Source of the DNA: Patescibacteria group bacterium
Lineage (GTDB): Bacteria > Patescibacteriota > Minisyncoccia > Phycocordibacterales > GWA1-40-21
Assembly: GCA_018971765.1 (NCBI GenBank)
Contig: JAGXAA010000001.1
Span: 1 to 33,723, forward strand
Length of the DNA stretch: 33,723 bases
Direction of reading: 5' to 3'
This document shows, piece by piece, positions 5,867 through 32,921 of the stretch (positions within the stretch are counted from its first letter, which is position 1; every line of letters starts with the position of its first letter). The notes under the pieces are model-generated. The model saw nothing but the letters and a program-made list of their open reading frames with translations, did no database searches and had not been told where the DNA came from. The position numbers and the translations under genes are program-made.

Positions 5867-8752
5867 TTAGATGACTATGCTGATGATTTTGTTTTTCACG
5901 AATAAAATTTTCTTAATCTCGTTCTCTCCGACGTATTTTTTAATTTCAGGAAGAGACAATGCGATACTCTGAATTTCTTCTTGATTTTTATCTTTTCCGG
6001 CGCTGAAGCTGCCTCTGACCTTGCCGTTTATTTGAACAACGACGGTCGTCTCATCAGGCTCAATCTTTGATTCGTCAAATTTCGGCCACTCTTCCAGATG
6101 AATTGATTTTTTTTCACCTAAAATATTTTGCCAAATTTCCTCCGCCAAATGAGGCGCGAAAGGACTCAATAATTTAATAAACGACTTATAGCTGAAAGAT
6201 GACGGCTTATTTTCGTCTTTCTCCATCTCGTTAAGCAGAATCATCAGAGCGCTTATGGCGGTATTGAAGCGAAAATTTTCTATATCCTCCGTTACTTTTT
6301 TTATCGTCTGATGAATCAGTCTCTCCAATTTTGGATTTTCAGTTTTTAGATTTGATTTTTTATTTTTTAATTTGAGCGACAGCGAATAAACTCTTTCCAA
6401 AAACCTCCTTGAACCGATCATATTGTCCGCGCTCCAGCTTATCGGCTGATCGAACGGCCCCATAAACATTTCGTAAACCCTCAAAGTGTCGGCGCCGAAT
6501 TGACTCACGACATCGTCCGGATTAACGACATTGCCCCACCTCTTGCTCATTTTTCTGCCGTCGTTTCCCATAATCAACCCTTGATTTTTTAGGCTGGCAA
6601 AAGGCTCTTTTTCGCCGACAATTCCGATGTCATATAAAAATTTATGCCAAAAACGGGCGTAGATAAGATGTCTTGTCGCGTGTTCAGTCCCGCCGACATA
6701 CATATCCACTGGAGACCAGTATTTTTCTTTTTTCTTATCAACCAACGCCTTCTTATTTTTCGGGTCAATATAACGAAGATAGTACCAGGACGAGCCCGCC
6801 CACTGAGGCATTGTGTTGGTTTCTCTTTTTCCTTTACCTCCGCATTTCGGACACTTCACATTGGTCCATTTATCCATTTTCGCCAAAGGCGATTCGCCGG
6901 TATCGGTCGGCTCGTAAAATTTCACCTTCGGCAACTTCACCGGCAAATCTTTTTCCGGCACAGCGACCACTCCGCAATATCCGCAATGGATAAGAGGTAT
7001 CGGTTCGCCCCAATATCTCTGGCGCGAAAAAACCCAGTCTTTGAGCTTGTAATTTATTTTTTTTTCGCCCAATTTTCTCTCTTCCAGCCACTTCGTCATT
7101 TTTCCTCTGGCAGTTTTAGAATCTAGCCCATCAAATTCCTCTGAATTAATTAAAATGCCATCGCCGGTATAGATACTCTCTTCCCCAATCATTCTGTTCC
7201 AAAAAAGAGTATCGCTTTTATCGTCAAAAAGATAATTTAAGACCTCGTTATGATTTACCCAGACGACATCATGAGTTTCATTTTCTTTTTGGTCTATCTC
7301 CATCTTTTCTCCATTTTCGAGTTCAAAGTAAAGCGGAGTTATAATTGCCCATCGATTTTCGTTTTTATGACGAGCAAAAAATTGATTATGAACCTTGCTT
7401 CCGAGTTTTTTAATGAATTTCGGAGAAACATATCCAGTTTCCTCTTTTATTTCTCTCAAGCCGGCTTTCACAGGATCTTCACCGTCAGTACCTCCAACCA
7501 CAAAAGTTTTCCAGTCATATTTTTTCCATTTTAAACAAATATATTTATTTTCAGACCAGTGTTTTACAATACAGACGACTGTTTCCCTTTTCTGCATCGG
7601 TAAATTTTCCACAATAGCGTCTGGACCGAAAGTTGTCTTAAAAAGTGGTTCGATAATTTCCCTGATCGGCAAATTATATTTTTTGGCAAATTCCCAATCT
7701 CGCTCATCATGCGCCGGCACGGCCATCACAGCACCGGTGCCATATCCACCCAAGACATAATCCGCGACGAAAATAGGCACTTCTTCGCCATTGGCTGGAT
7801 TTAGCGCCTTAACGCCCTTCAAATCCACTCCCGTTTTTTCTTTCGCCAAATCCGTCCTCTGCAAATCAGATTTATTTTTCGCCTCCGTAATATATTTTTC
7901 CACCGCCCCCAAATTTTTAATTTGCCCCTTTAGTTCTTCAATTATTTTGTTTTCAGGGGCGATGACAAGGTAAGTGACACCGAATATCGTATCTACTCTC
8001 GTCGTAAAGATTTTCACTTCTCCAAACTGCAAGCTATTAGCCGTAAGTTTAAAGCTAACTTCCACCCCCTCCGACTTTCCTATCCAATGTCTCTGCGATT
8101 CTTTGATGTGCTCCGACCATCCTTTCAACTCTTTCAAGTCTTCCAGCATTCTTTCGGCGTAGTCGGTGATTTTTAAAACCCATTGCCTCATCGGCTTTTT
8201 AACGACCGGCGTGGCGCACCTTTCGCACTTGCCGTCTTCCACATCTTCATTGGCCAGGCCGGTGAGGCACGACGGACAGAAATTTATCGGCTCGTAAGAT
8301 TCGTAGGCCAGACCCTTTTCAAACATTTTCAAAAATATCCATTGCGTCCATTTGTAGAAATTCGGGTCGGAGGTGATTATTTCTCTATCCCAATCGTAGT
8401 CAAACCCCAGCATCTCAAGCTGTTTCTTGTATCTTTTTATGTTATTTTTAATGGCGACTTCCGGATGAATTTTATTTTTGATGGCGTAATTTTCCGCCGG
8501 CAGACCAAAAGAATCAAATCCCATCGGATGCAGGACATTAAAGCCGTTCATCCTTTTGAATCGGGAATAAACATCTGCGGCGATATATCCTCTTGGATGC
8601 CCGACATGGAGCCCCTCGCCCGACGGATACGGAAACATATCCAAAATGAAACACTTCGGTTTCTTCCCTCCCTCTTTCGTCTTGTAGATTTTCTTGACAG
8701 CCCAGTGCTTCTGCCACTTTTTCTCTATTTTTTTATGGTCGTATTTTTTCAA
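5867..8752 (-). CDS. leuS: Leucine--tRNA ligase carrying an inserted Nudix-like domain
   Basis: 961 aa with a TTG start; an in-frame TAG three codons upstream prevents extension. Motifs: HIGH (HVGHPRGY), KMSKS (KMSKRWGN), CP1 editing motifs (TTRVDTIFG, GTGAVMAVPAHDERD). Residues ~371-528 are extra and contain a Nudix box. Confidence 0.95.
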   Translation of the reverse strand: MKKYDHKKIEKKWQKHWAVKKIYKTKEGGKKPKCFILDMFPYPSGEGLHVGHPRGYIAADVYSRFKRMNGFNVLHPMGFDSFGLPAENYAIKNKIHPEVAIKNNIKRYKKQLEMLGFDYDWDREIITSDPNFYKWTQWIFLKMFEKGLAYESYEPINFCPSCLTGLANEDVEDGKCERCATPVVKKPMRQWVLKITDYAERMLEDLKELKGWSEHIKESQRHWIGKSEGVEVSFKLTANSLQFGEVKIFTTRVDTIFGVTYLVIAPENKIIEELKGQIKNLGAVEKYITEAKNKSDLQRTDLAKEKTGVDLKGVKALNPANGEEVPIFVADYVLGGYGTGAVMAVPAHDERDWEFAKKYNLPIREIIEPLFKTTFGPDAIVENLPMQKRETVVCIVKHWSENKYICLKWKKYDWKTFVVGGTDGEDPVKAGLREIKEETGYVSPKFIKKLGSKVHNQFFARHKNENRWAIITPLYFELENGEKMEIDQKENETHDVVWVNHNEVLNYLFDDKSDTLFWNRMIGEESIYTGDGILINSEEFDGLDSKTARGKMTKWLEERKLGEKKINYKLKDWVFSRQRYWGEPIPLIHCGYCGVVAVPEKDLPVKLPKVKFYEPTDTGESPLAKMDKWTNVKCPKCGGKGKRETNTMPQWAGSSWYYLRYIDPKNKKALVDKKKEKYWSPVDMYVGGTEHATRHLIYARFWHKFLYDIGIVGEKEPFASLKNQGLIMGNDGRKMSKRWGNVVNPDDVVSQFGADTLRVYEMFMGPFDQPISWSADNMIGSRRFLERVYSLSLKLKNKKSNLKTENPKLERLIHQTIKKVTEDIENFRFNTAISALMILLNEMEKDENKPSSFSYKSFIKLLSPFAPHLAEEIWQNILGEKKSIHLEEWPKFDESKIEPDETTVVVQINGKVRGSFSAGKDKNQEEIQSIALSLPEIKKYVGENEIKKILFVKNKIISIVI

Positions 8753-8774
8753 ATTATACTAAATAAAATTAAAG

Positions 8775-10247
8775 TTAATATATTGAACTCGGCCGCATTG
8801 CGGGAAAAAGTATCGCTTCTTTTATGTTTTTCGCGTTGCTTAAAAGCATCGTGAGACGGTCAATGCTCAAGCCAAGTCCGCCGGCTGGCGGAATTCCGTA
8901 TTCCATCGCTTCGATGAAATCTTCATCCGCCGGCTGGGCTTCTTTATCTCCATCTTTTCTGTATTTTTCCTGAACGGAAAATCTTTCTCTTTGATCAATC
9001 GGGTCATTCAGCTCGGAAAACGCTTTGACTATTTCCATTCCTCCCGCGACGACCTGAAAAGCGTCCGCCAAATTTTTGTCTTTGTCGGTTTTTTTGGCTA
9101 GAGGAAGGTAATTGACGGGATAATCATTAATGAAAGTCGGTTGAATGAGCTTCGGACGGCAAGTCTTTTTGTACACGCTGTCCATTATTTTTTCCAAGCC
9201 GTCACCCTTGTCGGTTTTTACCCCTAATTTTTTCGCCAAGGAAATAATTTCTTCTTTGGCAATAGTTTCCGGCGATTTTATTCCGGCGTATTTTTTCAAC
9301 AGATCAAGATAAGAAACGACTTCAAACTTTTTTGAAAAATCAATTTTATTTCCTTGAAAGACGATTGTCTCTTTGCCAACCGTTTCCTTGACTATTTTCC
9401 CAATGACCGATTCGACAAAAATCATCTGTTTCGAGGCGTCGCTGTAGCTTTCATACCATTCGACTGTCGTGAACTCGGGGTTGTGCGTCATGTCAATTCC
9501 TTCATTTCTGAAAGACCTTCCTATCTCATAGACTTTTGGGAATCCGCCGATAAGAAGTTTTTTCAAATAAATTTCCGGAGCGATGCGCAAGAACAAATCG
9601 ATGTCGAGCGCGTTATGATGAGTCTTAAACGGTTCGGCGCTCGCGCCTCCGGCCAATGACTGCAAAATCGGAGTCTCGACTTCCAAAAAACCGGCGCCGT
9701 CAAGAATTTTTCGGAGTTCGGTGATTATGCGCGAACGGAGAATGAATCGAGTTTTGACTTCAGGGGACATTAACGCGTCAAGATACCTTTTTCTGAACCT
9801 CTCTTCCGTATCGGAAAGTCCATGCCATTTTTCCGGCAAAGGGCGCAAACTTTTTGACAGCATTTTCCACGAATTCGCTTTAATGGTCTTCTCTCCCCTT
9901 TTCGTCATAAAAAGCAAACCTTTGACTTCTATGAAGTCGCCGATGTCGACATTATTGGAAAAAAAATCAAAATCTGATTCTTTCATTTCATCTTTCTTCA
10001 GAAGCCCTTGAAATTTTGCCGTACCGTCGTCAAGATGAAAAAATATCAAAGCTCCTTGAGGCCTCAAGGACATAACCCTGCCCGCGAGCGATAATGTTTT
10101 TTCTTTCGATAGCTTGTCGAAATCAGCGACAACTTTCCCTAATTCATAATCTCGTTCTGAAGATATCGGATAAGACTCGATGCCGTTTTGAGCCAAAGTT
10201 TTCAGCTTTTCCAGACGATTATTTCTAATTTCTTGGAGTGATGCCAT
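8775..10247 (-). CDS. lysS: Lysine--tRNA ligase (class II)
   Basis: 490 aa with an OB-fold N-terminus and class II motifs (FRNEGIDMTHNPEFT, GGLGLSIDRLTMLL). Confidence 0.93.
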   Translation of the reverse strand: MASLQEIRNNRLEKLKTLAQNGIESYPISSERDYELGKVVADFDKLSKEKTLSLAGRVMSLRPQGALIFFHLDDGTAKFQGLLKKDEMKESDFDFFSNNVDIGDFIEVKGLLFMTKRGEKTIKANSWKMLSKSLRPLPEKWHGLSDTEERFRKRYLDALMSPEVKTRFILRSRIITELRKILDGAGFLEVETPILQSLAGGASAEPFKTHHNALDIDLFLRIAPEIYLKKLLIGGFPKVYEIGRSFRNEGIDMTHNPEFTTVEWYESYSDASKQMIFVESVIGKIVKETVGKETIVFQGNKIDFSKKFEVVSYLDLLKKYAGIKSPETIAKEEIISLAKKLGVKTDKGDGLEKIMDSVYKKTCRPKLIQPTFINDYPVNYLPLAKKTDKDKNLADAFQVVAGGMEIVKAFSELNDPIDQRERFSVQEKYRKDGDKEAQPADEDFIEAMEYGIPPAGGLGLSIDRLTMLLSNAKNIKEAILFPAMRPSSIY

Positions 10248-13595: not shown

Positions 13596-13697
13596 GAATT
13601 ACGAAACGCAAAATTTAAGTCCTCGGGTCGCAAAAACTCTTTGTCTTTCAAGGTGTTTTTGCTCAACCAGACTATAAATTTTTGCGTTTCATAATTC
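13596..13697. repeat. Intergenic palindromic element, copy A (~95% identical by eye to the reverse complement of copy B at 30845..30947)
   Basis: GAATTACGAAACGCAAAATTTAAGTCCTCGGGTCGCAAAAACTCTTTGTCTTTCAAGGTGTTTTTGCTCAACCAGACTATAAATTTTTGCGTTTCATAATTC. The arms pair for ~22 bp and there is an inner GCAAAAAC/GTTTTTGC stem. ATGCTATA flanks it at 13584-13591 and 13702-13709. Confidence 0.7.
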
Positions 13698-24172: not shown

Positions 24173-26350
24173 ATGAAACTTTTAATCGTGGAATCGCCGG
24201 CGAAAGCGAAGACGATTTCAAAATATTTGGATGGCAAGTACACGGTCAAAGCGAGCGTCGGGCACATCAGGGATTTGCCGAAAAGCAACAAGAGCGCGAT
24301 TGATATAGAAGGAGGGTTTATTCCTCATTATGAAATTTCCAAGGGCAAAGAGAAAGTCGTCTCCGAAATAAAATCTCTGGCAAAAAGAGCGGAAGAGATT
24401 TTGCTCGCGACCGACCCTGATCGAGAAGGTGAAGCCATCGCTTGGCACATTAAAGAAGCCGTCGGACTTAAAAATCCTAAACGAGTGGTTTTTCACGAGA
24501 TTACGAAAGACGCCGTGAAAGAAGCGATCGAGCATCCTCGGGAAATTGATGAAAATTTAAGAAAAGCGCAGGAAGCGAGAAGAGTGCTCGACCGATTGGT
24601 GGGTTACGACTTAAGCGGACTTATCTGGAAGAAAGTTCGCTATGGTCTGTCCGCCGGAAGAGTTCAGTCCCCCGCCTTACGCATCATTATGGAAAGAGAG
24701 CGGGAAATCCGCGCTTTCATACCGGAAAAATTTTGGACGATTACCGCCGATGTTGCGGCGAAAGAAGGCAAAGGAGATAAATTCACTCTAACTTGCTCCG
24801 AAGAACCGCGGGAAGAAAAAGAGACTGAAAGAATTTTAGAGATTGGAAAAAAAGAAATCTGGAAAGTCAAAGGCGTTGCTGAGACGGAAGCCAAGAGATC
24901 GCCTCGCGCGCCATTCATCACCTCCACTCTCCAGCAATCGGCCAGTTCTCGCTTGGGGTTCGCTCCCTCAAGAACAATGGGTATCGCCCAGAAACTTTAC
25001 GAAGCGGGCTTGATCACCTATATGAGAACCGACAGCGTCAATATGAGCCAAGTCGCGCTAAAGCAGATTTACGGATTGGTTGATAAAAAATACGGCAAAG
25101 AATATCTGGTTCCGCGCGTATATTCCAAGAAAAGCAAGAATGCCCAGGAGGCGCACGAAGCTATACGGCCGACCAATATGCTGAGCGAATTGGGCGGGGC
25201 GAATGACGAACAGCAGAAACTTTATCGCCTTATCTGGCAAAGAGCGGTTTCTTCCCAAATGTCTGATGCCAAAATAATGAGAACAAAAATAACCGCGCAA
25301 ATAGGCAAAGGTGAAATTCCATTTTTTTACATCAACGGCTCAAGGGTGAAGTTTGACGGCTGGCTTGCGGCCGACCCGGCGTCCAGAGGCGAAGATGTTG
25401 AATTGCCGAAGGTCGCGGTTGGAGAAATTTTGAAACTGATAGAAATGCGCTCCGAAGGAAAGCAGACCGAACCTCCCGCCAGATATTCCGAAGCCGGGCT
25501 CGTAAAAGAACTGGAAAAAAGAGGCATCGGCCGCCCTTCGACTTATGCTAGTATAATAAAGACGCTGGAAGACAGAGACTATGTGGAGAAAATCAGCAAA
25601 GCCCTGCATCCAACCGACACGGGCGATGTTGTGAGCTCATTCCTTGAAAATAATTTCGCCAATTATATCAGTGATTCGTTCACCGCGCGAATGGAAGACG
25701 AGCTCGACGACATAGCGAGCGGTAAAATCGGATATGAAAAAACTTTAAGCGATTTTTATAAGCCATTTTCCAAAGAAGTGAAATCAAAAGACAAAATCGA
25801 AAAAATCAATAATCTCGGAGAAGCCGACCCTGCTATGAAATGCCCTATTTGCAAAGGCGGTATGATAATAAAGCTCGGCAAGACCGGCAAATTTTTAAGT
25901 TGCGCCAAGTTTCCGGATTGTTCGGGAGCGCGAAAGATTGCAGGCGAGGAGTTAGCGGGACCGAAAGAGACCGGAGAAGATTGTCCTGAATGCAAAAAGG
26001 GCAAACTTGTCGAGAGAGACGGTAAATTCGGCAGATTTATTTCATGCAACAATTATCCCAAATGCAAATATATTAAAAAAAACGCCGAGCTGGAAAAACA
26101 AAATTCCACCGGTATCGCCTGTCCGATCTGCAGACACGGAATGATGACGGAGCGCCGCGGCAGATTCGGGCTTTTCTACAGCTGTTCAAATTATCCCAAA
26201 TGCAAGAACGCCATAAAAGCGAAGCCGACAGGCAATATATGCAAATTGTGTGGAGCTCTTATGATGGAGGGAACAAAAACTATTCCCGAACGCTGTTCAG
26301 ACAAGACCTGCCCCAACCACAATCCGCACAAAATCGCTAAAACGGAGTAG
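24173..26350 (+). CDS. topA: DNA topoisomerase I
   Basis: It has a TOPRIM N-terminus (LLIVESPAKAKTISKYL) and the active-site region GLITYMRTDS. The C-terminus carries four C4 zinc ribbons (CPICKGG..C..C etc). Confidence 0.95.
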   Translation: MKLLIVESPAKAKTISKYLDGKYTVKASVGHIRDLPKSNKSAIDIEGGFIPHYEISKGKEKVVSEIKSLAKRAEEILLATDPDREGEAIAWHIKEAVGLKNPKRVVFHEITKDAVKEAIEHPREIDENLRKAQEARRVLDRLVGYDLSGLIWKKVRYGLSAGRVQSPALRIIMEREREIRAFIPEKFWTITADVAAKEGKGDKFTLTCSEEPREEKETERILEIGKKEIWKVKGVAETEAKRSPRAPFITSTLQQSASSRLGFAPSRTMGIAQKLYEAGLITYMRTDSVNMSQVALKQIYGLVDKKYGKEYLVPRVYSKKSKNAQEAHEAIRPTNMLSELGGANDEQQKLYRLIWQRAVSSQMSDAKIMRTKITAQIGKGEIPFFYINGSRVKFDGWLAADPASRGEDVELPKVAVGEILKLIEMRSEGKQTEPPARYSEAGLVKELEKRGIGRPSTYASIIKTLEDRDYVEKISKALHPTDTGDVVSSFLENNFANYISDSFTARMEDELDDIASGKIGYEKTLSDFYKPFSKEVKSKDKIEKINNLGEADPAMKCPICKGGMIIKLGKTGKFLSCAKFPDCSGARKIAGEELAGPKETGEDCPECKKGKLVERDGKFGRFISCNNYPKCKYIKKNAELEKQNSTGIACPICRHGMMTERRGRFGLFYSCSNYPKCKNAIKAKPTGNICKLCGALMMEGTKTIPERCSDKTCPNHNPHKIAKTE

Positions 26351-26408: not shown

Positions 26409-26666
26409 TTATTTCTCATCATCTCCCGTCGCGACGACTGAAACATCGGGAGCCTCCGTCTCCGCTATGGCTTGAGCGACTTTTTTGCTCAAATTGGCAA
26501 GGTACCTGGTCGAGATGCCTTGTCCAACCACAACGACAATCAAGACGGCGATAAAAAACCAAAAAAAATTATTGGACACAAAACCCTCCTTTTGAAAAAT
26601 TTTGTAAAAAATAAAGATTTCTCTAAGCAGAGTTCCCGAGGCGCCGTCGGAGCTCATTCCGCTCAT
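26409..26666 (-). CDS. Hypothetical small membrane protein
   Basis: 85 aa with an ATG start and one TM segment (FFWFFIAVLIVVVVGQGI). Confidence 0.35.
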   Translation of the reverse strand: MSGMSSDGASGTLLREIFIFYKIFQKEGFVSNNFFWFFIAVLIVVVVGQGISTRYLANLSKKVAQAIAETEAPDVSVVATGDDEK

Positions 26667-26755: not shown

Positions 26756-27085
26756 TCAATAATTTCTAGTTTTCCTCTCCTTGAAAAAATCCTCAAGACG
26801 ATATGCCGCGCCCTTGAGACCGACATGCCAGTTTGTCACCGACTCGACCGGCTGATTTTCCTTGTAGTCGTAGATGGTGATGACCGCTCTGCCCCTTCGG
26901 GCAGTTGTTTTGAATGCCCACTCTGCACGGACCTTGCCGTCGCCGGACCGCCATATACCCTCTCTGGTCCGATCGTGTGGTCGGCCGAAGCACTTTACGA
27001 GGTCGTCGTATGATCCTTGAAGATATCCTGCAAAGCCCGAGCCGATGACATCCTTTGGACCTGCTTTTATAAATCGATTTTTCAT
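26756..27085 (-). CDS. Hypothetical protein inside the GC-rich insert, downstream of the RT
   Basis: The ATG at 27085 gives MKNRFIKAGPKDVIGSGFAGYLQGSYDDLVKCFGRPHDRTREGIWRSGDGKVRAEWAFKT...ITIYDYKENQPVESVTNWHVGLKG (109 aa). Its GC-rich codon usage matches the RT and target genes. I recognise no family. The longer track ORF would run through a structured intergenic region. Confidence 0.45.
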   Translation of the reverse strand: MKNRFIKAGPKDVIGSGFAGYLQGSYDDLVKCFGRPHDRTREGIWRSGDGKVRAEWAFKTTARRGRAVITIYDYKENQPVESVTNWHVGLKGAAYRLEDFFKERKTRNY

Positions 27086-27246
27086 GCACGGACGAACATA
27101 CCCCTGCTTTCTTAGGAAGTCTAGCGTCCGAATCTCTGAATTTTCGGCACACGCCCTTGAAGTGGCCCGAAGCCGTGGAAATGGCTTACACCAAGCGGAA
27201 AAGCGCACACGCGGGCGAACAGGGGCCGAATTCAGGGGTATGTTCC

Positions 27247-28077
27247 CTATAAGCCAGCAACCTTTTTCTTTAAATCATTGCCGTCGCCATGACTTAGCAA
27301 TCCGAGGTAAGACTGAACGACCTCTGGTTTCTTCTCCGAATCCCTGATTTTCTTAAACATTCTTTTCTTAGTTGTTGTACGCAGAACCCGATGATGTGGA
27401 AAATGCACCCAGCCGAGAAAGTCGATACCTGACGCTGCGGTCTTCAGAAATATTTTATCCGGATGGAGCGACAGCTTCAGTCTCTCCTCGAGAAAGTCAT
27501 GGACTTTCGGTAGCACTTCCATGAGCACGCCTTTGTCATGGTGCATGATCACAAAGTCGTCGGCGTAGCGGATGTAGTACCTCTGCCTGAGTCCGTGTTT
27601 TACAAACTGGTCGAATTCATTCATGTATATGTTCACGAGAAGCTGCGAGGTTAGGTTGCCGAGCGGCAATCCTTTGCCTGGACCTGTACTCTGAAAGCTG
27701 CTGACGGTCCGTTCAATGAGCCAGATAGTGTCAGGGTCGCTTATGTGCCGCTTCACGATCTGAACCATGGTTGCCTGATCGATTGAGGCAAAGAATTTTC
27801 TGACATCGCACTTCAGGACCCAGCATGTCCTGCTGTTGCTCTCTGAAACCTGCCGTACGAATTGGTTGAAGCGCTTAAGCGCACGGTGTGTTCCCTTGAG
27901 ATGACGGCAGGAGTAGGAATCGTAGATAAATTTCTTATCAAAAAGCGGATACAGGACGCGGTAGATTGCATGATGCAGAAGCCTGTCGCGGACCGTAGCC
28001 TTATGGATACTCCTTGGCTTAGGATCGCTTATCGAAAATGCCTCATACTCGCCGTGTCGATATGTCTTGGTCCGCAA
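27247..28077 (-). CDS. DGR-type reverse transcriptase (frame continues upstream to the ATG at 28215 but is interrupted by TAA at 28197-28195)
   Basis: SISDPKPRSIHKATVRDRLLHHAIY (motifs 1-2), KCDVRKFFASID (motif 3), LPLGNLTSQLLVNIYMNEFD (the DGR-typical GxxxSQ motif 4), YIRYADDFVIM (YxDD), GIDFLGW. The track start at 28077 is TTG. The same frame upstream reads MTTRIS*SIKNLCDAWNEFIRGKKSKKDVAEFSLNLSQNIFRLHEDL. Confidence 0.9.
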   Translation of the reverse strand: MRTKTYRHGEYEAFSISDPKPRSIHKATVRDRLLHHAIYRVLYPLFDKKFIYDSYSCRHLKGTHRALKRFNQFVRQVSESNSRTCWVLKCDVRKFFASIDQATMVQIVKRHISDPDTIWLIERTVSSFQSTGPGKGLPLGNLTSQLLVNIYMNEFDQFVKHGLRQRYYIRYADDFVIMHHDKGVLMEVLPKVHDFLEERLKLSLHPDKIFLKTAASGIDFLGWVHFPHHRVLRTTTKKRMFKKIRDSEKKPEVVQSYLGLLSHGDGNDLKKKVAGL

Positions 28078-28213
28078 ATCCTCATGAAGCCTGAAAATAT
28101 TTTGCGAGAGATTGAGGGAAAATTCAGCGACATCCTTTTTCGACTTCTTACCGCGAATAAATTCATTCCATGCGTCGCATAGATTTTTGATGGATTATGA
28201 TATTCTTGTAGTC

Positions 28214-28609
28214 ATGATTCATTCCCGTAAAGAAGGCGTTTTACCCCCCCCCCGAGAATTACCACAAGTAATTCTCAAGTCGAAAGAGACATACCATTTC
28301 TGGCTGACGCTATATCGTGATTTTCCAAAGGTTGAGCGGTTTGGCATAGGAAATAAAGTAGAGCAGGCTTTTCTTGATGTTCTTGAATACACCTTTTGTC
28401 TGACCTATCTCCCACCGGAGCATAAGGTTCCCATGCTCAACAAAGCGATCACGAAACTCGACATCGTGAAGTTTTTCGCCCAGCTCGCATGGGAGAGCAA
28501 GCTCATTCCAACCGATAAATATTCAGACCTTATCGCGGGCCTTGAAGAAGTCGGCCGACAGCTCGGCGGATGGAAGAAAGGCCTACAAAAGAAAACTTCT
28601 GCTAATTGA
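28214..28609 (+). CDS. avd: Avd-like accessory variability determinant (four-helix-bundle protein)
   Basis: 131 aa from the ATG at 28214. FPKVERFGIGNKVEQAFLDVLEYTF...LDIVKFFAQLAWESKLI...GLEEVGRQLGGWKKGL resembles Avd and 23S-IVS four-helix-bundle proteins; compare the BPP-1 Avd ...AEVGRILGSWI, recalled from memory. It sits next to TR and RT but on the opposite strand. Confidence 0.75.
   Translation: MIHSRKEGVLPPPRELPQVILKSKETYHFWLTLYRDFPKVERFGIGNKVEQAFLDVLEYTFCLTYLPPEHKVPMLNKAITKLDIVKFFAQLAWESKLIPTDKYSDLIAGLEEVGRQLGGWKKGLQKKTSAN
28244..28253. repeat. C10/G10 homopolymer tract
   Basis: ttaCCCCCCCCCCgag. It encodes the PPP of avd codons ~11-14 and lies 29-38 nt upstream of the RT-frame ATG on the other strand. 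Confidence 0.9.
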
Positions 28610-28616
28610 GCAGAAG
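28596..28616. promoter_or_regulatory. 7-bp hairpin straddling the avd stop codon, 12 nt from the TR 3' end
   Basis: CTTCTGC-TAATTGA-GCAGAAG. On the minus strand it lies immediately 3' of TR. Confidence 0.5.
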
Positions 28617-28627
28617 AAAGATAACAG

Positions 28628-28749
28628 TTTCGAGAGAACACCTGGTTGCCATCGTTCCACCTGTTCGGGTTCTCGACGGAGTTCGCATTGACGTTCCAGC
28701 CGTCGTCGTTCCAGTTCACGTTGACCGTTCGGAGCACACCAGCGTTATC
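28628..28749 (-). repeat. DGR template repeat (TR)
   Basis: It aligns without gaps to 29094..29215 (offset 466). On the minus strand it reads ...DNAGVLRTVNVNWNDDGWNVNANSVENPNRWNDGNQVFSRN, rich in AAC/AAT codons. Confidence 0.9.
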
Positions 28750-28984
28750 GTACATGGGACCATCTGCATCACCGCCCACCAAATCATGACAAGCTGAATT
28801 TTATTCGGGACATCGAAGTCCGCCAGTCTCATGTACCAATTCTTATTCTTTTTTTGAAGAGACTTCTCTCACTCTCGCGCAAGGCGTACCCAGCGCGACT
28901 CTCGGGAAAAATATCCTAAGACCATGACGCGGAAGCCGTGACCGCCGCGTAACACATGATTTCGGAAGCAGTATACCAGTTTGA

Positions 28985-29026
28985 ATATAAAAAATTAACC
29001 CCCGGTCTGCCGAAGCAAACCGAGGG
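28985..29026 (-). terminator. Rho-independent terminator after the DGR target gene
   Basis: Minus strand: CCCUCGGUUUGC-UUCG-GCAGACCGGGGG. This is a 12-bp stem whose two non-Watson-Crick pairs are G-U only on the minus strand, with a UUCG tetraloop. It is followed by TTAATTTTTTATAT. Confidence 0.6.
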
Positions 29027-29050
29027 TCAAAGTGTCCAAGGGACAGAGGA

Positions 29051-29761
29051 TCAGGCCGCCGGAGCCGAAGGTTCCGAGGATTCGAGAACAGAATTGCGAG
29101 AGAACACCTGGCTGCCATCGCCCCACCTGCTCGGGTCCTCGACGGAGCGCGCACGGACGAACCAGCCGCCGCCGCACCAGAGCACGCGGACCGCGCGGAG
29201 CACACCAGCGACATCCTTGATGTAGAAGAGATTGGCCCAGCCGTTGTTCAGGAGAACACCTTCTTCGCCATGCTTCTGCTTTTCCATGAGGGAAAACATC
29301 TCGGAGAGAGTGGTTTCAGCTTTCGCTTCGCCACCGAGCTCCTCAATGATCGTACTATCCACTGATGCCTTGCGCAATTTTGCATAGTGCAGGGTTTGTT
29401 CACTGATAGGGTCTTCGATTTTGCCGTCACCGTTTAGGAACCACGCCTTGAAGTTGCCGCCGAGGTAGCTGATCTTCACCGGAGCGTTACGCTTGGTGTT
29501 GATCACAAACCTCTCTTTGGCGACGAGCTTGCCGGTCGTTGCGGGAATGACGATCGTCGAGACGAGCTCGAGGAGATCGGTCCGGGGCTTCGGAGCGGGC
29601 GCTTGCGCGACCTCACCGTTACTCCAGCAGGACTCTTTGCGGAGAAACCGCTTGAGTTCTTCTTCCCATTGGCTGCCGTCCTGGCCGCCGAGGTTCACAA
29701 TGAGCTGATTGAGCGGTCCGGTTGTGAATTCGCGGAGCGCCTTGCTGAGCATAGTATCCAT
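29051..29761 (-). CDS. DGR target (variable) protein; VR forms the C-terminal ~40 codons
   Basis: 236 aa with AAAGGAG 7 nt upstream of the ATG. C-terminus: ...DVAGVLRAVRVLWCGGGWFVRARSVEDPSRWGDGSQVFSRN. It matches the TR translation except at TR Asn/Asp/Thr codons. Confidence 0.85.
   Translation of the reverse strand: MDTMLSKALREFTTGPLNQLIVNLGGQDGSQWEEELKRFLRKESCWSNGEVAQAPAPKPRTDLLELVSTIVIPATTGKLVAKERFVINTKRNAPVKISYLGGNFKAWFLNGDGKIEDPISEQTLHYAKLRKASVDSTIIEELGGEAKAETTLSEMFSLMEKQKHGEEGVLLNNGWANLFYIKDVAGVLRAVRVLWCGGGWFVRARSVEDPSRWGDGSQVFSRNSVLESSEPSAPAA
29094..29215 (-). repeat. DGR variable repeat (VR)
   Basis: 122 nt homologous to TR. By hand alignment there are 24 mismatches, and every one falls at a plus-strand T (coding-strand A) of TR. 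Confidence 0.9.
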
Positions 29762-29900: not shown

Positions 29901-29930
29901 ATTGTAGCACAAGAAGTACCTATTTGTCAA
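29901..29930 (-). promoter_or_regulatory. Near-consensus sigma-70-type promoter for the target gene
   Basis: Minus strand: TTGACA, an 18-nt spacer ending in TGC, then TACAAT (extended -10 TGnTAcAAT). Confidence 0.5.
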
Positions 29931-30815: not shown

Positions 30816-30844
30816 CGCGGCTCGAAAAGCTTCATAATTCAAAG

Positions 30845-30947
30845 GAATTATGAAACGGAAAAATTTACGGTCTGGTTGAGCAAAAACACCTTGAAAGACA
30901 AAGAGGTTTTGCGACCCGAGGACTTAAATTTTTCCGTTTCGTAATTC
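30845..30947. repeat. Intergenic palindromic element, copy B (reverse orientation relative to copy A)
   Basis: GAATTATGAAACGGAAAAATTTACGG...CCGAGGACTTAAATTTTTCCGTTTCGTAATTC. The core matches copy A. It is flanked by ATAATTCAAAG (30834-30844) and ATAATTCCAAAG (30951-30962). Confidence 0.7.
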
Positions 30948-30977
30948 ATGATAATTCCAAAGTAACCCGCAATCCGA

Positions 30978-32921
30978 CTATGGCTGATGCTCAATGTCCA
31001 TTTTCTTTTTCGGAATGATGCCGTGGGCGATGATTATTTTCTCAAATTCGTCTTTCTCAATCGTCTCCGCTTCAATCAGTCTTTTGGCGATGGCATCCAA
31101 AGCGTCGCGATTTTTTATAATTATGTCTTCGGATTTTTTGAAGGCCTCGTTCATTATTTTGGAAACTTCGTCGTCAATCATGGCGCCGACTTTTTCCGAA
31201 TATTCTTTGTCTTCCAAACCTCTGCCGTAGACGGCTCTGCCTCCCGCCCCCTCAAACGCCATCGGCCCCATTCTCTCCGACATTCCGTATTTCGTCACCA
31301 TATCGCGCGCGAGAGCGGTAGCGACCTGCAAGTCATTGGACGAACCTGTGGTGAGGTCGCCAAACATCATTTTTTCCGTCACATAACCGCCGAGAGAAAC
31401 GGCAATATCGTCAAGAAATTCTCTCTGCGATTGGAGTCTCTTGTCTTCAATCGGCAATTTCAAAGTGTAGCCGGCGGCGCGGCCTCGGGAAATTATGGAA
31501 ACTTTGTGAACCGGATCGGAGTAAGGAAGCGCGGAAGCGATGATGGCATGCCCTCCTTCGTGATAAGCGGTTATTTCTTTTTCTTTTTTTGAAAGAATGT
31601 GGCTTTTTCTTTCCGGACCGAGCATCACTTTTTCAATGGAACGAATAAGGTCATACTGCGAGATTTTTTTCCTGTTTTCGCGCGCCGCGAGAATCGCTCC
31701 TTCATTCATCAAAGAATACAGATCGGCTCCGGAAAAGCCCGGCGTTCTCTCGGCGATAACTGAGAAATTCACATCTTCCGCAAATTGTTTGGCGCGGGCG
31801 TGGATTTTCAATATTTCTTCTCTGTCATTTCTGTCGGGCAAATCTATCGTCACTCTGCGGTCAAATCTTCCCGGGCGAAGAAGCGCCGAGTCCAAAACAT
31901 CCGGCCTGTTGGTCGCCGCCATCACGATTACTTTCTCGTTCGGTTCAAAGCCGTCCATCTCCACCAAAATTTGGTTTAAGGTCTGTTCTCTCTCATCGTT
32001 TCCTCCTCCAAGCCCGGCTCCTCGCACTCTGCCCACCGCGTCTATCTCATCAACAAAAACGATTGACGGCGCGGCTTGCTTCGCCATTTTGAACAAATCT
32101 CTGACGCGCGAAGCGCCGACCCCGACAAACATTTCCACGAATTCCGAACCGGAAATTGAAAAGAAGGCGACTCCAGCTTCACCCGCCACAGCTCGCGCCA
32201 ACAATGTCTTGCCTGTGCCCGGCGCGCCCATCAAAAGTATCCCTTTCGGTATGCGCGCGCCGATTTCCAAAAACTTTTTCGGATTTTTCAGGAAATCAAC
32301 TATCTCCGAAAGCTCCTCCTTTGCCTCTTTGGCGCCCGCGACATCGGCAAAAGTCACTTTTTGTTTTTTATCCGACGGCAAAATCATTCTCGCCTTTGAC
32401 TGCCCAAAAGTGAAAGCTTGCATCCCCGCGCCTTTGACCTGCCTCGACAAAAACCAGATAAAGATGAATATGAAAAGAATCGGCGCGAGAAAAGGAGCGA
32501 GGTTGATAATCCAATACCCTATCCCGCTTGGATTTTTTATTTCAATTTTCACCGCCGCGATTTTTTCCGCCTTAACTCCGTAATTGGAAAGCGTGTCGGA
32601 AAGCGCCGTTCCATCTTCTTTCTTCGCGATTTTTTTCTCCTCCGAGCCGACATATTTTATCTCTAAATTATCGCCTTTCACGGTGATACTTTCCACACTG
32701 CCGGCGGAAATGTCAGAAGCGACTTGCGAGATCGGAATTTCTTTGACCGATGAAGTGTTGTCGGCGATTATTGAATACAAAGTGATAATAACTAAGAAAA
32801 TCAATATCGCGCTAATAGCATTCACGAAAAACGGCTTCTTGAGGGAATGTTTCTTCACCCCGCGCCCTCTCTTATCTTGCCCCGCTTTCTTCCCATTTTT
32901 ATTATTATTAAATAAGTCCAT
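30978..32921 (-). CDS. ftsH: ATP-dependent zinc metalloprotease FtsH
   Basis: Two TM segments, Walker A ([11 protein letters not shown]), an SRH region, and the zinc motif HEGGHA. Confidence 0.95.

Follow-up and report, generated by a model that had tools for sequence, protein, structure and literature searches.

A diversity-generating retroelement of Patescibacteria, most likely disabled recently by a single-nucleotide insertion in its reverse transcriptase gene

We analyzed a stretch of 33,723 nucleotides from the genome of a Patescibacteria group bacterium (GenBank assembly GCA_018971765.1, contig JAGXAA010000001.1, positions 1 to 33,723 of the forward strand), hereafter referred to as the window. 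The region between positions 27,247 and 29,761 is, we conclude with considerable confidence, a chromosomal diversity-generating retroelement (DGR) that belongs to a lineage specific to Patescibacteria, presents the layout known as B3 and was most likely disabled recently by the insertion of one nucleotide in its reverse transcriptase (RT) gene. A first-pass annotation of the sequence had described the element as complete and as having been active. Its four parts are all present, namely the RT, the Avd accessory protein, a template repeat (TR) as well as a target gene carrying a variable repeat (VR), but the RT frame is broken by an extra A at position 28195 and the 276-amino-acid open reading frame (ORF) of this gene is a remnant. 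Likewise, the claim of activity holds for the past, as indicated by the adenine-only divergence of the two repeats, whereas the present capacity of the element is doubtful in view of the RT frameshift.

Results

Adenine-specific divergence of the repeat pair

Our repeat search over the 33.7-kb window recovered a single family of direct repeats, composed of positions 28619-28756 and 29085-29222 at an offset of 466 nt. Within these two copies, the TR occupies positions 28628..28749 and the VR positions 29094..29215, both on the minus strand and both 122 nt in length, exactly where the first-pass annotation had placed them. The TR contains 34 adenines and 12 in-frame AAC/AAT codons. The VR corresponds to residues 183-223 of the target protein and lies at the 3' end of the target gene, which extends over positions 29051..29761 of the minus strand and encodes 236 amino acids. 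When aligned along the minus strand, the two repeats present 24 mismatches and all 24 are located at adenines of the TR, such that 24 of the 34 adenines have been used and none of the 88 non-adenine positions differs (hypergeometric P = 7.8e-18). Beyond the limits of TR and VR, in contrast, the mismatches between the repeat copies involve all four bases. The unvaried 3' segment CCAGGTGTTCTCTCG is common to TR and VR, and divergence is found directly past the last adenine change. These results bear out the earlier description of a VR that has diverged from its TR exclusively in the manner of a DGR.

The changes are also distributed as expected for a repeat that recodes a protein. Reading the VR in frame within the target ORF, 22 of its 24 changes affect codon position 1 or 2. 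A total of 20 adenine-bearing codons of the TR can be recoded, which yields a theoretical repertoire of ~6e18 peptides. In the closest relatives, the VR codons without adenine at position 1 or 2 are all identical (21/21) and the adenine-bearing codons match at only 5-9 of 20. Across hundreds of homologues, moreover, the hypervariable columns of the target alignment coincide with the adenine-bearing codons of the TR. Past mutagenic retrohoming is therefore well supported by the pattern of substitutions, and the lack of any non-adenine difference between TR and VR indicates that the last retrohoming event was recent. An ORF of 125 codons that covers the TR (28405-28782) was considered and rejected as a gene: it corresponds to the TR read in frame and runs antisense into avd.

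A frameshifted reverse transcriptase

The RT gene is located on the minus strand at positions 27247..28222. Its longest conventional ORF starts at a TTG codon and extends from 28077 to 27247 (276 amino acids); this ORF matches the Pfam family RVT_1 with an E-value of 4.7e-24. The best solved relative of the protein is the Bordetella enzyme bRT (8ub7, E 1.2e-37), and the next class, composed of group II intron/retron-type enzymes, was matched at 4.6e-19 or weaker. The motifs LPLGNLTSQ and YADD, both recognized in the first-pass annotation (the former as LGNLTSQ), align to IPIGSLTSQ and YMDD of bRT. On the basis of this ranking of PDB matches and of these motifs, rather than of a phylogeny, the enzyme groups with DGR RTs and not with group II intron, retron or Abi RTs, as had been proposed.

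The homology to DGR RTs does not end at the TTG codon. It runs in frame upstream of position 28077 as SIKNLCDAWNEFIRGKKSKK... and ends at a TAA codon (28197-28195). The conserved start of the protein, MNHDYKNII, is encoded by the nine codons that begin at ATG 28222-28220 and lies in a different frame from the main RT frame. The cause is a 1-nt insertion, the extra A at 28195 immediately after codon 9, which also creates the in-frame TAA. Once this insertion is removed, the gene encodes 324 amino acids, as compared with 328 for bRT, and the repaired frame matches PHROG 1423 across residues 1-312 (1.8e-106). The corresponding segment is M-x-H-[DE]-Y-x-x-I-I-S-[IL]-x-N-L in all 31 related loci, with no interruption and no shift in any of them. 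At this place a relative with 87% identity (locus L085) reads ...ATCATA-TCT..., as opposed to ...ATCATAATCC... in the window. The RT reading frame is uninterrupted at this place in the 31 related loci and is not intact in the window.

We also found the insertion in two GenBank contigs of metagenome-assembled genomes from the same strain (L001 and L002). These contigs differ from the window by 22 single-nucleotide polymorphisms (SNPs) in 9.7 kb, in addition to differences in homopolymer length. The insertion is therefore common to three differing assemblies and does not represent an error of a single assembly. A look-up of the exact RT protein returned only two NCBI contigs. Between the TAA and codon 49 of the RT, we detected no ATG, GTG or TTG codon. 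In bRT, the N-terminal extension contacts the template via a conserved lysine on a loop that is braced by Avd (bRT structure paper); an RT product begun at TTG 28077 would be devoid of this segment.

Related loci and the present state of the element

The order target(+)-VR-TR(+)-avd(-)-RT(+), with strands expressed relative to the target, was observed in ~30 of 80 species-level loci, all belonging to Patescibacteria. In the window and in these ~30 related loci, the TR is followed by an avd gene on the reverse strand and by an RT on the strand of the TR, which corresponds to the definition of the B3 layout. Each of these ~30 cassettes presents TR/VR mismatches that are biased toward adenine, with 616 of 811 mismatches at A even with loose alignment ends. 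The homologues all originate from Patescibacteria/Paceibacteria, in agreement with the candidate phyla radiation (CPR) context suggested by the first-pass annotation. The remaining target homologues are orphans or are located beside remnants, and about half of them have no RT or avd within 5 kb. Three loci (L003-L005) retain a copy of the TR and only the 3' third of avd. Judging from these gene contents, DGR loss that leaves orphan targets behind appears to be common in the target family. Frequent decay of these cassettes is indicated by the broken RT of the window, the remnants and the abundance of orphan targets. As a separate observation, one member (P0096, locus L093, on the 580-kb contig JACCDV010523697.1) encodes a 293-amino-acid "target" whose VR is near-identical to its TR and which reads into the antisense of avd. 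The interval from VR to TR appears to have collapsed in this locus, through either real recombination between the repeats or misassembly.

Several observations bear on whether the element of the window can still function. The window, L001 and L002 carry the same VR, even though 6 nt of the target scaffold differ. Six of the 22 SNPs that separate the window from L002 fall within 105 nt of the target scaffold (29353-29457) and cause four amino-acid changes, two of which affect nearly invariant residues; the target of the window carries R125H and P137T, both at such residues. Taken with the RT insertion, the identical VRs and these two substitutions suggest that the cassette, active until recent times, is probably disabled at present.

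We consider it unlikely, in spite of some favorable observations, that the DGR is still fully functional, with the RT produced by +1 ribosomal frameshifting at AUA-A-UCC, by a non-canonical start after the TAA (e.g., AUC at 28191) or supplied by an RT gene elsewhere in the genome. Such a scenario would agree with the recent retrohoming implied by the 88 unchanged non-adenine positions, and the shift is preceded by only nine N-terminal residues and followed by the conserved GKK segment of the extension. However, no conventional start codon is available before codon 49, the shift sequence is unlike a known shift site, and its absence from all 31 relatives (0/31) indicates that it is not a conserved recoding site. 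The unchanged VR in three assemblies with a diverged target scaffold, the substitutions at nearly invariant target residues and the frequent decay of cassettes in this family argue in the same direction. Some points nonetheless weigh against our conclusion that the element has been disabled, or limit what is built on it. The identity of the VRs comes from three consensus assemblies and constitutes weak evidence of inactivity; the last retrohoming event was recent; some low-level production of the RT may persist; a ligand-binding role is assumed for a target without significant structural neighbor; and the transcript boundaries proposed below are drawn from consensus patterns and conservation. 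Finally, the idea that the gene encodes a group II intron, retron or defence (Abi/DRT) RT next to an ordinary diverged duplication of 122 nt can be dismissed as next to impossible: the top NCBIfam match is indeed a group II intron RT/maturase model (9.3e-40, score 136.8 against a cutoff of 300, in a collection that holds no DGR RT model) and PADLOC DRT models also match, but bRT outranks every other solved relative by 18 orders of magnitude, the RT shows neither a maturase nor an endonuclease domain, Rfam detected no intron RNA in the window, a DGR-specific Avd adjoins the gene, the repeat mismatches are restricted to adenines (P ~8e-18) and the same cassette with A-biased TR/VR pairs recurs in ~30 species.

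The avd gene and its simple repeat

The avd gene is located on the plus strand at positions 28214..28609, between TR and RT and antisense to both. It encodes 131 amino acids from ATG 28214, with an alternative ATG at 28190. The protein matches Pfam bAvd with 41.8 bits, relative to a gathering score of 40, NCBIfam DivGenRetAVD with 59 bits (4.4e-16), which is under the cutoff of 80 for this model, and PHROG 3206, "Avd protein of DGR" (1.7e-14). These matches confirm the Avd-like ORF of the first-pass annotation, which had missed its antisense placement on the plus strand. The gene was found on the strand opposite to RT and TR in every related locus. The avd and RT genes begin head to head, with their start codons facing and 9 nt (28214-28222) common to the 5' ends of both ORFs, an arrangement that is kept in relatives and implies that the promoter and ribosome-binding site of each gene must lie inside the other gene.

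Between the ATG of avd and the first helix of the Avd domain, we identified an in-frame homopolymer of ten cytosines on the plus strand (28244..28253), which reads as G10 on the RT strand. The tract lies 21 nt upstream of the ATG of the RT in the window, within an overall range of 19-21 nt, and abuts a -10-like TAATAT. It is the sole G/C run of at least 6 nt in the window, and 50 of the 52 G/C runs of at least 8 nt in 891 kb of related loci were found at this same avd-proximal site. A tract of 7-16 nt is present in 27 of the 31 species-level DGR loci, and two additional loci (L042 and L051) possess (CT)n in its place, i.e., (AG)n on the RT strand; one locus (L082) is devoid of repeat and presents a plain in-frame ATG. 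A pattern scan of metagenomes supplied 27 further loci. The length of the tract varies between otherwise identical genomes: it differs in five comparisons with 100% identical flanks of 200 nt (9/10, 8/11, 8/9, 10/8 and 11/12). In L001, from the same strain, the tract is one base shorter than in the window and avd is split. Only 8 of 37 assemblies place the upstream ATG in the frame of the Avd domain, a share close to the chance expectation of ~1/3, and in the related assemblies examined no canonical start codon was found downstream of the tract before the middle of the protein. Directly 3' of the C tract, the window also carries a 9-bp inverted repeat, GAGAATTAC-N5-GTAATTCTC (28254..28276, plus strand). 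Covarying versions of this hairpin were found in L063, L073 and L045, and it is absent from several other lineages. Full-text literature searches on homopolymers and phase variation in DGRs, whose coverage left out Paul et al. 2017, returned no description of the avd repeat.

The most economical reading of the tract is that of a slipped-strand contingency switch that would move the Avd domain in and out of frame with its ATG, such that retrohoming would be ON in a subpopulation only; C10 would represent the ON state of avd. We give this reading a little less than an even chance. It is suggested by the site-specificity of the tract, by the presence of a repeat at this site in 29 of 31 species-level loci, by its variable length at identical flanks, by a frame state that appears random and by the lack of a canonical start past the tract. 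The substitution by (CT)n in two species further suggests that the mutability of the repeat, rather than its sequence, is what is conserved. On the other hand, short-read assemblies can miscall the length of homopolymers, and random lengths would be equally expected for an untranslated tract or a promoter tract located 19-21 nt from the ATG of the RT. The hairpin that adjoins the tract in some lineages instead suggests an RNA-level process, e.g., transcriptional slippage or ribosomal frameshifting. The alternatives to a slipped-strand switch are thus an RNA-level process, a promoter spacer for the RT and assembly noise. The first of these is suited by the covarying 9-bp hairpin, which is found in several but not all lineages, and the second by the contact with TAATAT and the distance to the RT start. 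A role of the poly-G strand as the Shine-Dalgarno sequence of the RT was considered as well and appears unlikely in view of its distance of 19-21 nt from the ATG and its replacement by (AG)n in two species.

The target protein

At its N-terminus (residues 1-40) the target protein has a helical pair, which a disordered linker joins to a conserved core (residues ~61-225) whose final 41 codons form the VR. Its AlphaFold model reached an overall predicted local distance difference test (pLDDT) score of 85.5, with >94 for residues 61-225, using a diverse alignment of 130 sequences whose diversity came from a search seeded with a member of 49% identity. A first model built from 112 close homologues had a pLDDT of 55 and was discarded. 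In the retained model, the VR covers the final three strands with the intervening loop. We identified more than 700 homologues of the target, all in Patescibacteria (Taylorbacteria, Vogelbacteria, Giovannonibacteria, Paceibacteria and others), and a profile search for remoter homologues mostly returned the same proteins. The N-terminal module is swapped for at least four unrelated N-termini in relatives. Inspecting the sequences of the family by eye, without a predictor, we saw no hydrophobic N-terminal or membrane-spanning segment.

No usable match to the target was obtained from Pfam, NCBIfam, PHROG, PADLOC or the PDB sequences with either the single sequence or the profile. Foldseek found no significant neighbor of the model in the PDB and nothing in BFVD. 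The top PDB match was a C-type lectin (3whd), with a non-significant E-value of 0.33 and a TM-score of 0.37; other C-type lectins recur lower among the matches and neither Mtd nor TvpA was found. Based on the predicted model, it is possible that the target adopts a very divergent C-type lectin (CLec) fold, and divergent CLec folds have been anticipated for CPR targets (Roux et al. 2021, PMC8144416). Separately, three proteins of 377-385 amino acids (P0121-P0123) outscore the single-domain members against the family profile, and these proteins possibly contain a duplicated core domain.

RNA elements and signals around the template repeat

A promoter-like site upstream of the target, TTGACA-18-TACAAT with a TG before the -10 box (29901..29930, minus strand), matches the consensus at 11 of 12 positions and was identified by pattern match only. 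Downstream of the target, 21 nt past its stop codon and 64 nt past the end of the VR, we found a 16-bp GC-rich hairpin with a UUCG loop that is followed by a T-run (28985..29030, minus strand). Equivalent hairpins with different stem sequences are present in 20 related loci, including those with orphan targets. This hairpin looks like the intrinsic terminator of the target and is possibly also the post-VR hairpin used in retrohoming. The consensus patterns and their conservation suggest that the target constitutes its own transcription unit. Directly after this putative terminator, TGnTATACT/TATAAT is found in ~20 loci, and in the window it takes the form of an extended -10 box, TGgTATACT (28970..28978, minus strand), which is likely the promoter of a separate TR RNA.

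The interval between this box and the TR is predicted to form a structured leader RNA of ~215 nt with seven helices (28750..28963, minus strand). Its closing helix of 12 bp ends at position 28750, one base ahead of the TR, and could set the 5' limit of cDNA synthesis. RNAalifold predicted 49 pairs in the leader, 36 of which show compensatory changes. Overall, 95.2% of the cells are paired, as compared with 83.2% in shuffled alignments, and on each of the five measures none of 500 shuffles reached the observed value. Controls slid along the alignment gave 43-55% of paired cells. In contrast, the global fold of the 331-nt TR region is no better than that of shuffled sequences (z 0.65); the structure was revealed by comparative analysis only. 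Part of the leader (28841-28952) matches the full model of the Rfam motif RT-9 below threshold, with 29.8 bits relative to a gathering score of 46.1. Four relatives score ~30 bits at this position as well, and the threshold is not reached in any of 15 loci. At gathering thresholds, Rfam detected only tRNAs in the window and in these 15 loci.

On the other side of the TR, 11 nt from its 3' end, the window presents an 8-bp hairpin, CTTCTGCT-CAATT-AGCAGAAG, together with the U-run UUUUCUUUUG (28585..28616, minus strand), and this element overlaps the stop codon of avd. The hairpin, which was flagged as terminator-like, keeps its position in 28 loci, and 5 of 6 pairs show compensatory changes. Putative Avd-binding stem-loops have been reported just 3' of the TR in 207 of 278 DGRs, CPR included (Handa et al., bioRxiv 10.1101/2023.10.23.563531). 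By its location, the hairpin of the window would occupy the place of this stem-loop.

Genomic neighborhood

The genes that flank the DGR bear out the housekeeping neighborhood described in the first-pass annotation. The window encodes HsdM, YceG, LeuRS, a class II aminoacyl-tRNA synthetase, GreA, GyrA, pieces of PPDK, DprA, Trp/TyrRS, TopA, a methyltransferase, FtsH and SmpB. The GC content reaches 0.50-0.54 between 27 and 30 kb, which is above that of the flanks. Two ORFs of the minus strand are located between the RT and topA, at 26756-27208 (150 amino acids; 109 in the GenBank call) and at 26409-26666 (85 amino acids), and neither has a family match. They were considered as DGR accessories and rejected, as they are found only in the assemblies of this strain. 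In L001, positions 7587-9763 correspond to 24173-26350 of the window and the topA call is split into two genes (69 and 656 amino acids), and a stretch of ~200 nt (9770-9973 of L001) fails to align with the window. From the sequences, these would be assembly or strain differences near the DGR.

Additional features were observed elsewhere in the window. Two inverted copies of an 88-nt element share 95% identity (13610-13697 and 30845-30932), and both are intergenic. The copy near the DGR sits between ftsH and the methyltransferase gene and is itself an imperfect 58-nt palindrome (30836-30956); the element may be a small mobile or regulatory repeat. The LeuRS ORF (5867-8752, minus strand, 961 amino acids) matches NUDIX at residues 405-506 (2.2e-10), a domain inserted past the editing domain. 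Finally, 14 of the 22 SNPs relative to L002 fall within 73 nt of ftsH (31590-31662) and cause one amino-acid change; such a cluster looks like a recombination tract.

Discussion

Our results suggest the following scheme for the element when it was active. A separate TR RNA would be made from the extended -10 promoter located just past the target terminator, and this RNA would be composed of the structured leader of ~215 nt, the 122-nt TR and the hairpin with its U-run. The RT and Avd would copy the TR into cDNA, misincorporating nucleotides opposite adenines, and the cDNA would then replace the VR at the 3' end of the gene encoding the 236-amino-acid target; 20 codons that belong to the terminal strands and loops of the core domain would thereby be recoded. 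The scheme builds on what was observed, i.e., the parts and their conserved layout, the adenine-only divergence of TR and VR, the RNA structures and a hypervariability confined to adenine-coded positions in hundreds of homologues; where the transcripts end, what the RNA elements do and what the target does are inferred. A broader proposal, which we advance tentatively and hold to be slightly less probable than the switch on avd taken by itself, combines two features: mutagenesis would be gated by a hypermutable repeat placed within the initial codons of avd, either 7-16 nt of poly-C or, in two species, (CT)n, and the DGR RNA would be organized unlike that of Bordetella, with an RT-9-like leader 5' of the TR and a terminator-like hairpin 3' of it.

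The presence of a DGR in a CPR genome agrees with large surveys and is ordinary by itself. The parts of most further interest are the avd repeat, the 5' leader and the fold of the target. The conserved avd repeat provides a concrete hypothesis for how cells control DGR activity. The structured RNA on the 5' side suggests that the scaffold of CPR DGRs is arranged unlike that of the only structurally characterized system, and the leader may give a role to the orphan Rfam motif RT-9. Finally, the target family of more than 700 members, with its confident predicted fold, its interchangeable N-termini and no export signal seen by eye, bears on the use that CPR bacteria make of hypervariable proteins.

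The closest known systems are the B3 DGRs of the CPR. According to Wu et al. 2018 (PMC5758913), 90% of CPR DGRs have the architecture TR-(avd)-RT with a reversed avd, and DGR clade 2 is restricted to Patescibacteria, with targets that have neither a transmembrane nor a known domain (Roux et al. 2021, PMC8144416). The element of the window shares with these systems TR, avd and RT in the same order and on the same strands, an upstream target with a C-terminal VR and a host belonging to Patescibacteria. Its target likewise has no recognized domain and, judged by eye, no transmembrane segment or signal peptide, and its VR is likewise not assignable by sequence to the CLec1-3 or immunoglobulin (Ig) classes. 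It differs from them in the strain-specific frameshift of its RT. We found no description of the avd-proximal repeat or of the 5' structured leader in the papers that we consulted.

The DGR of the Bordetella phage BPP-1 (mtd-VR/avd/TR/brt) resembles the element of the window in its homologous RT (E 1.2e-37) with the same catalytic and template-contact motifs, in its Avd accessory, in the adenine-only changes, in the AAC codons of the TR, in a target that carries its VR at the 3' end and in the GC-rich hairpin downstream of the target. The two systems differ in several respects. All parts of the BPP-1 system are encoded on one strand in the order avd-TR-brt, whereas avd is antisense in the window. 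The RNA that wraps bRT-Avd (Sp, Rfam RT-10) is located 3' of the TR in BPP-1, whereas the window presents a large structured RNA 5' of the TR and only a hairpin and U-run on the 3' side. The target of BPP-1 is a C-type lectin of the phage tail fibre, whereas that of the window is a small cellular protein without recognized fold. The leader itself resembles RT-9 (RF03080) in the first hairpin with its GGU(U/C)ACGGCU loop and in the CAUG, GAGAGU and A-rich tail, but it is more than twice as long as the model and scores ~30 bits relative to 46.1. RT-9 is one of the motifs RT-1 to RT-19 found near RT genes and has no stated function; RT-10 corresponds to the TR-brt spacer of BPP-1, and the other RT motifs have been speculated to serve other DGRs (Weinberg et al. 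2017, PMC5737381).

Finally, the avd repeat can be compared with the poly-G/C contingency loci of Campylobacter, Neisseria, Helicobacter and Bordetella. The likeness lies in a G/C run of 7-16 nt early in the coding region, in its variable length in otherwise identical sequences, in the random frame and in the dinucleotide that substitutes for the run at the same site. These contingency loci gate surface or restriction-modification genes, whereas the gene gated in the window would be an accessory factor of hypermutation.

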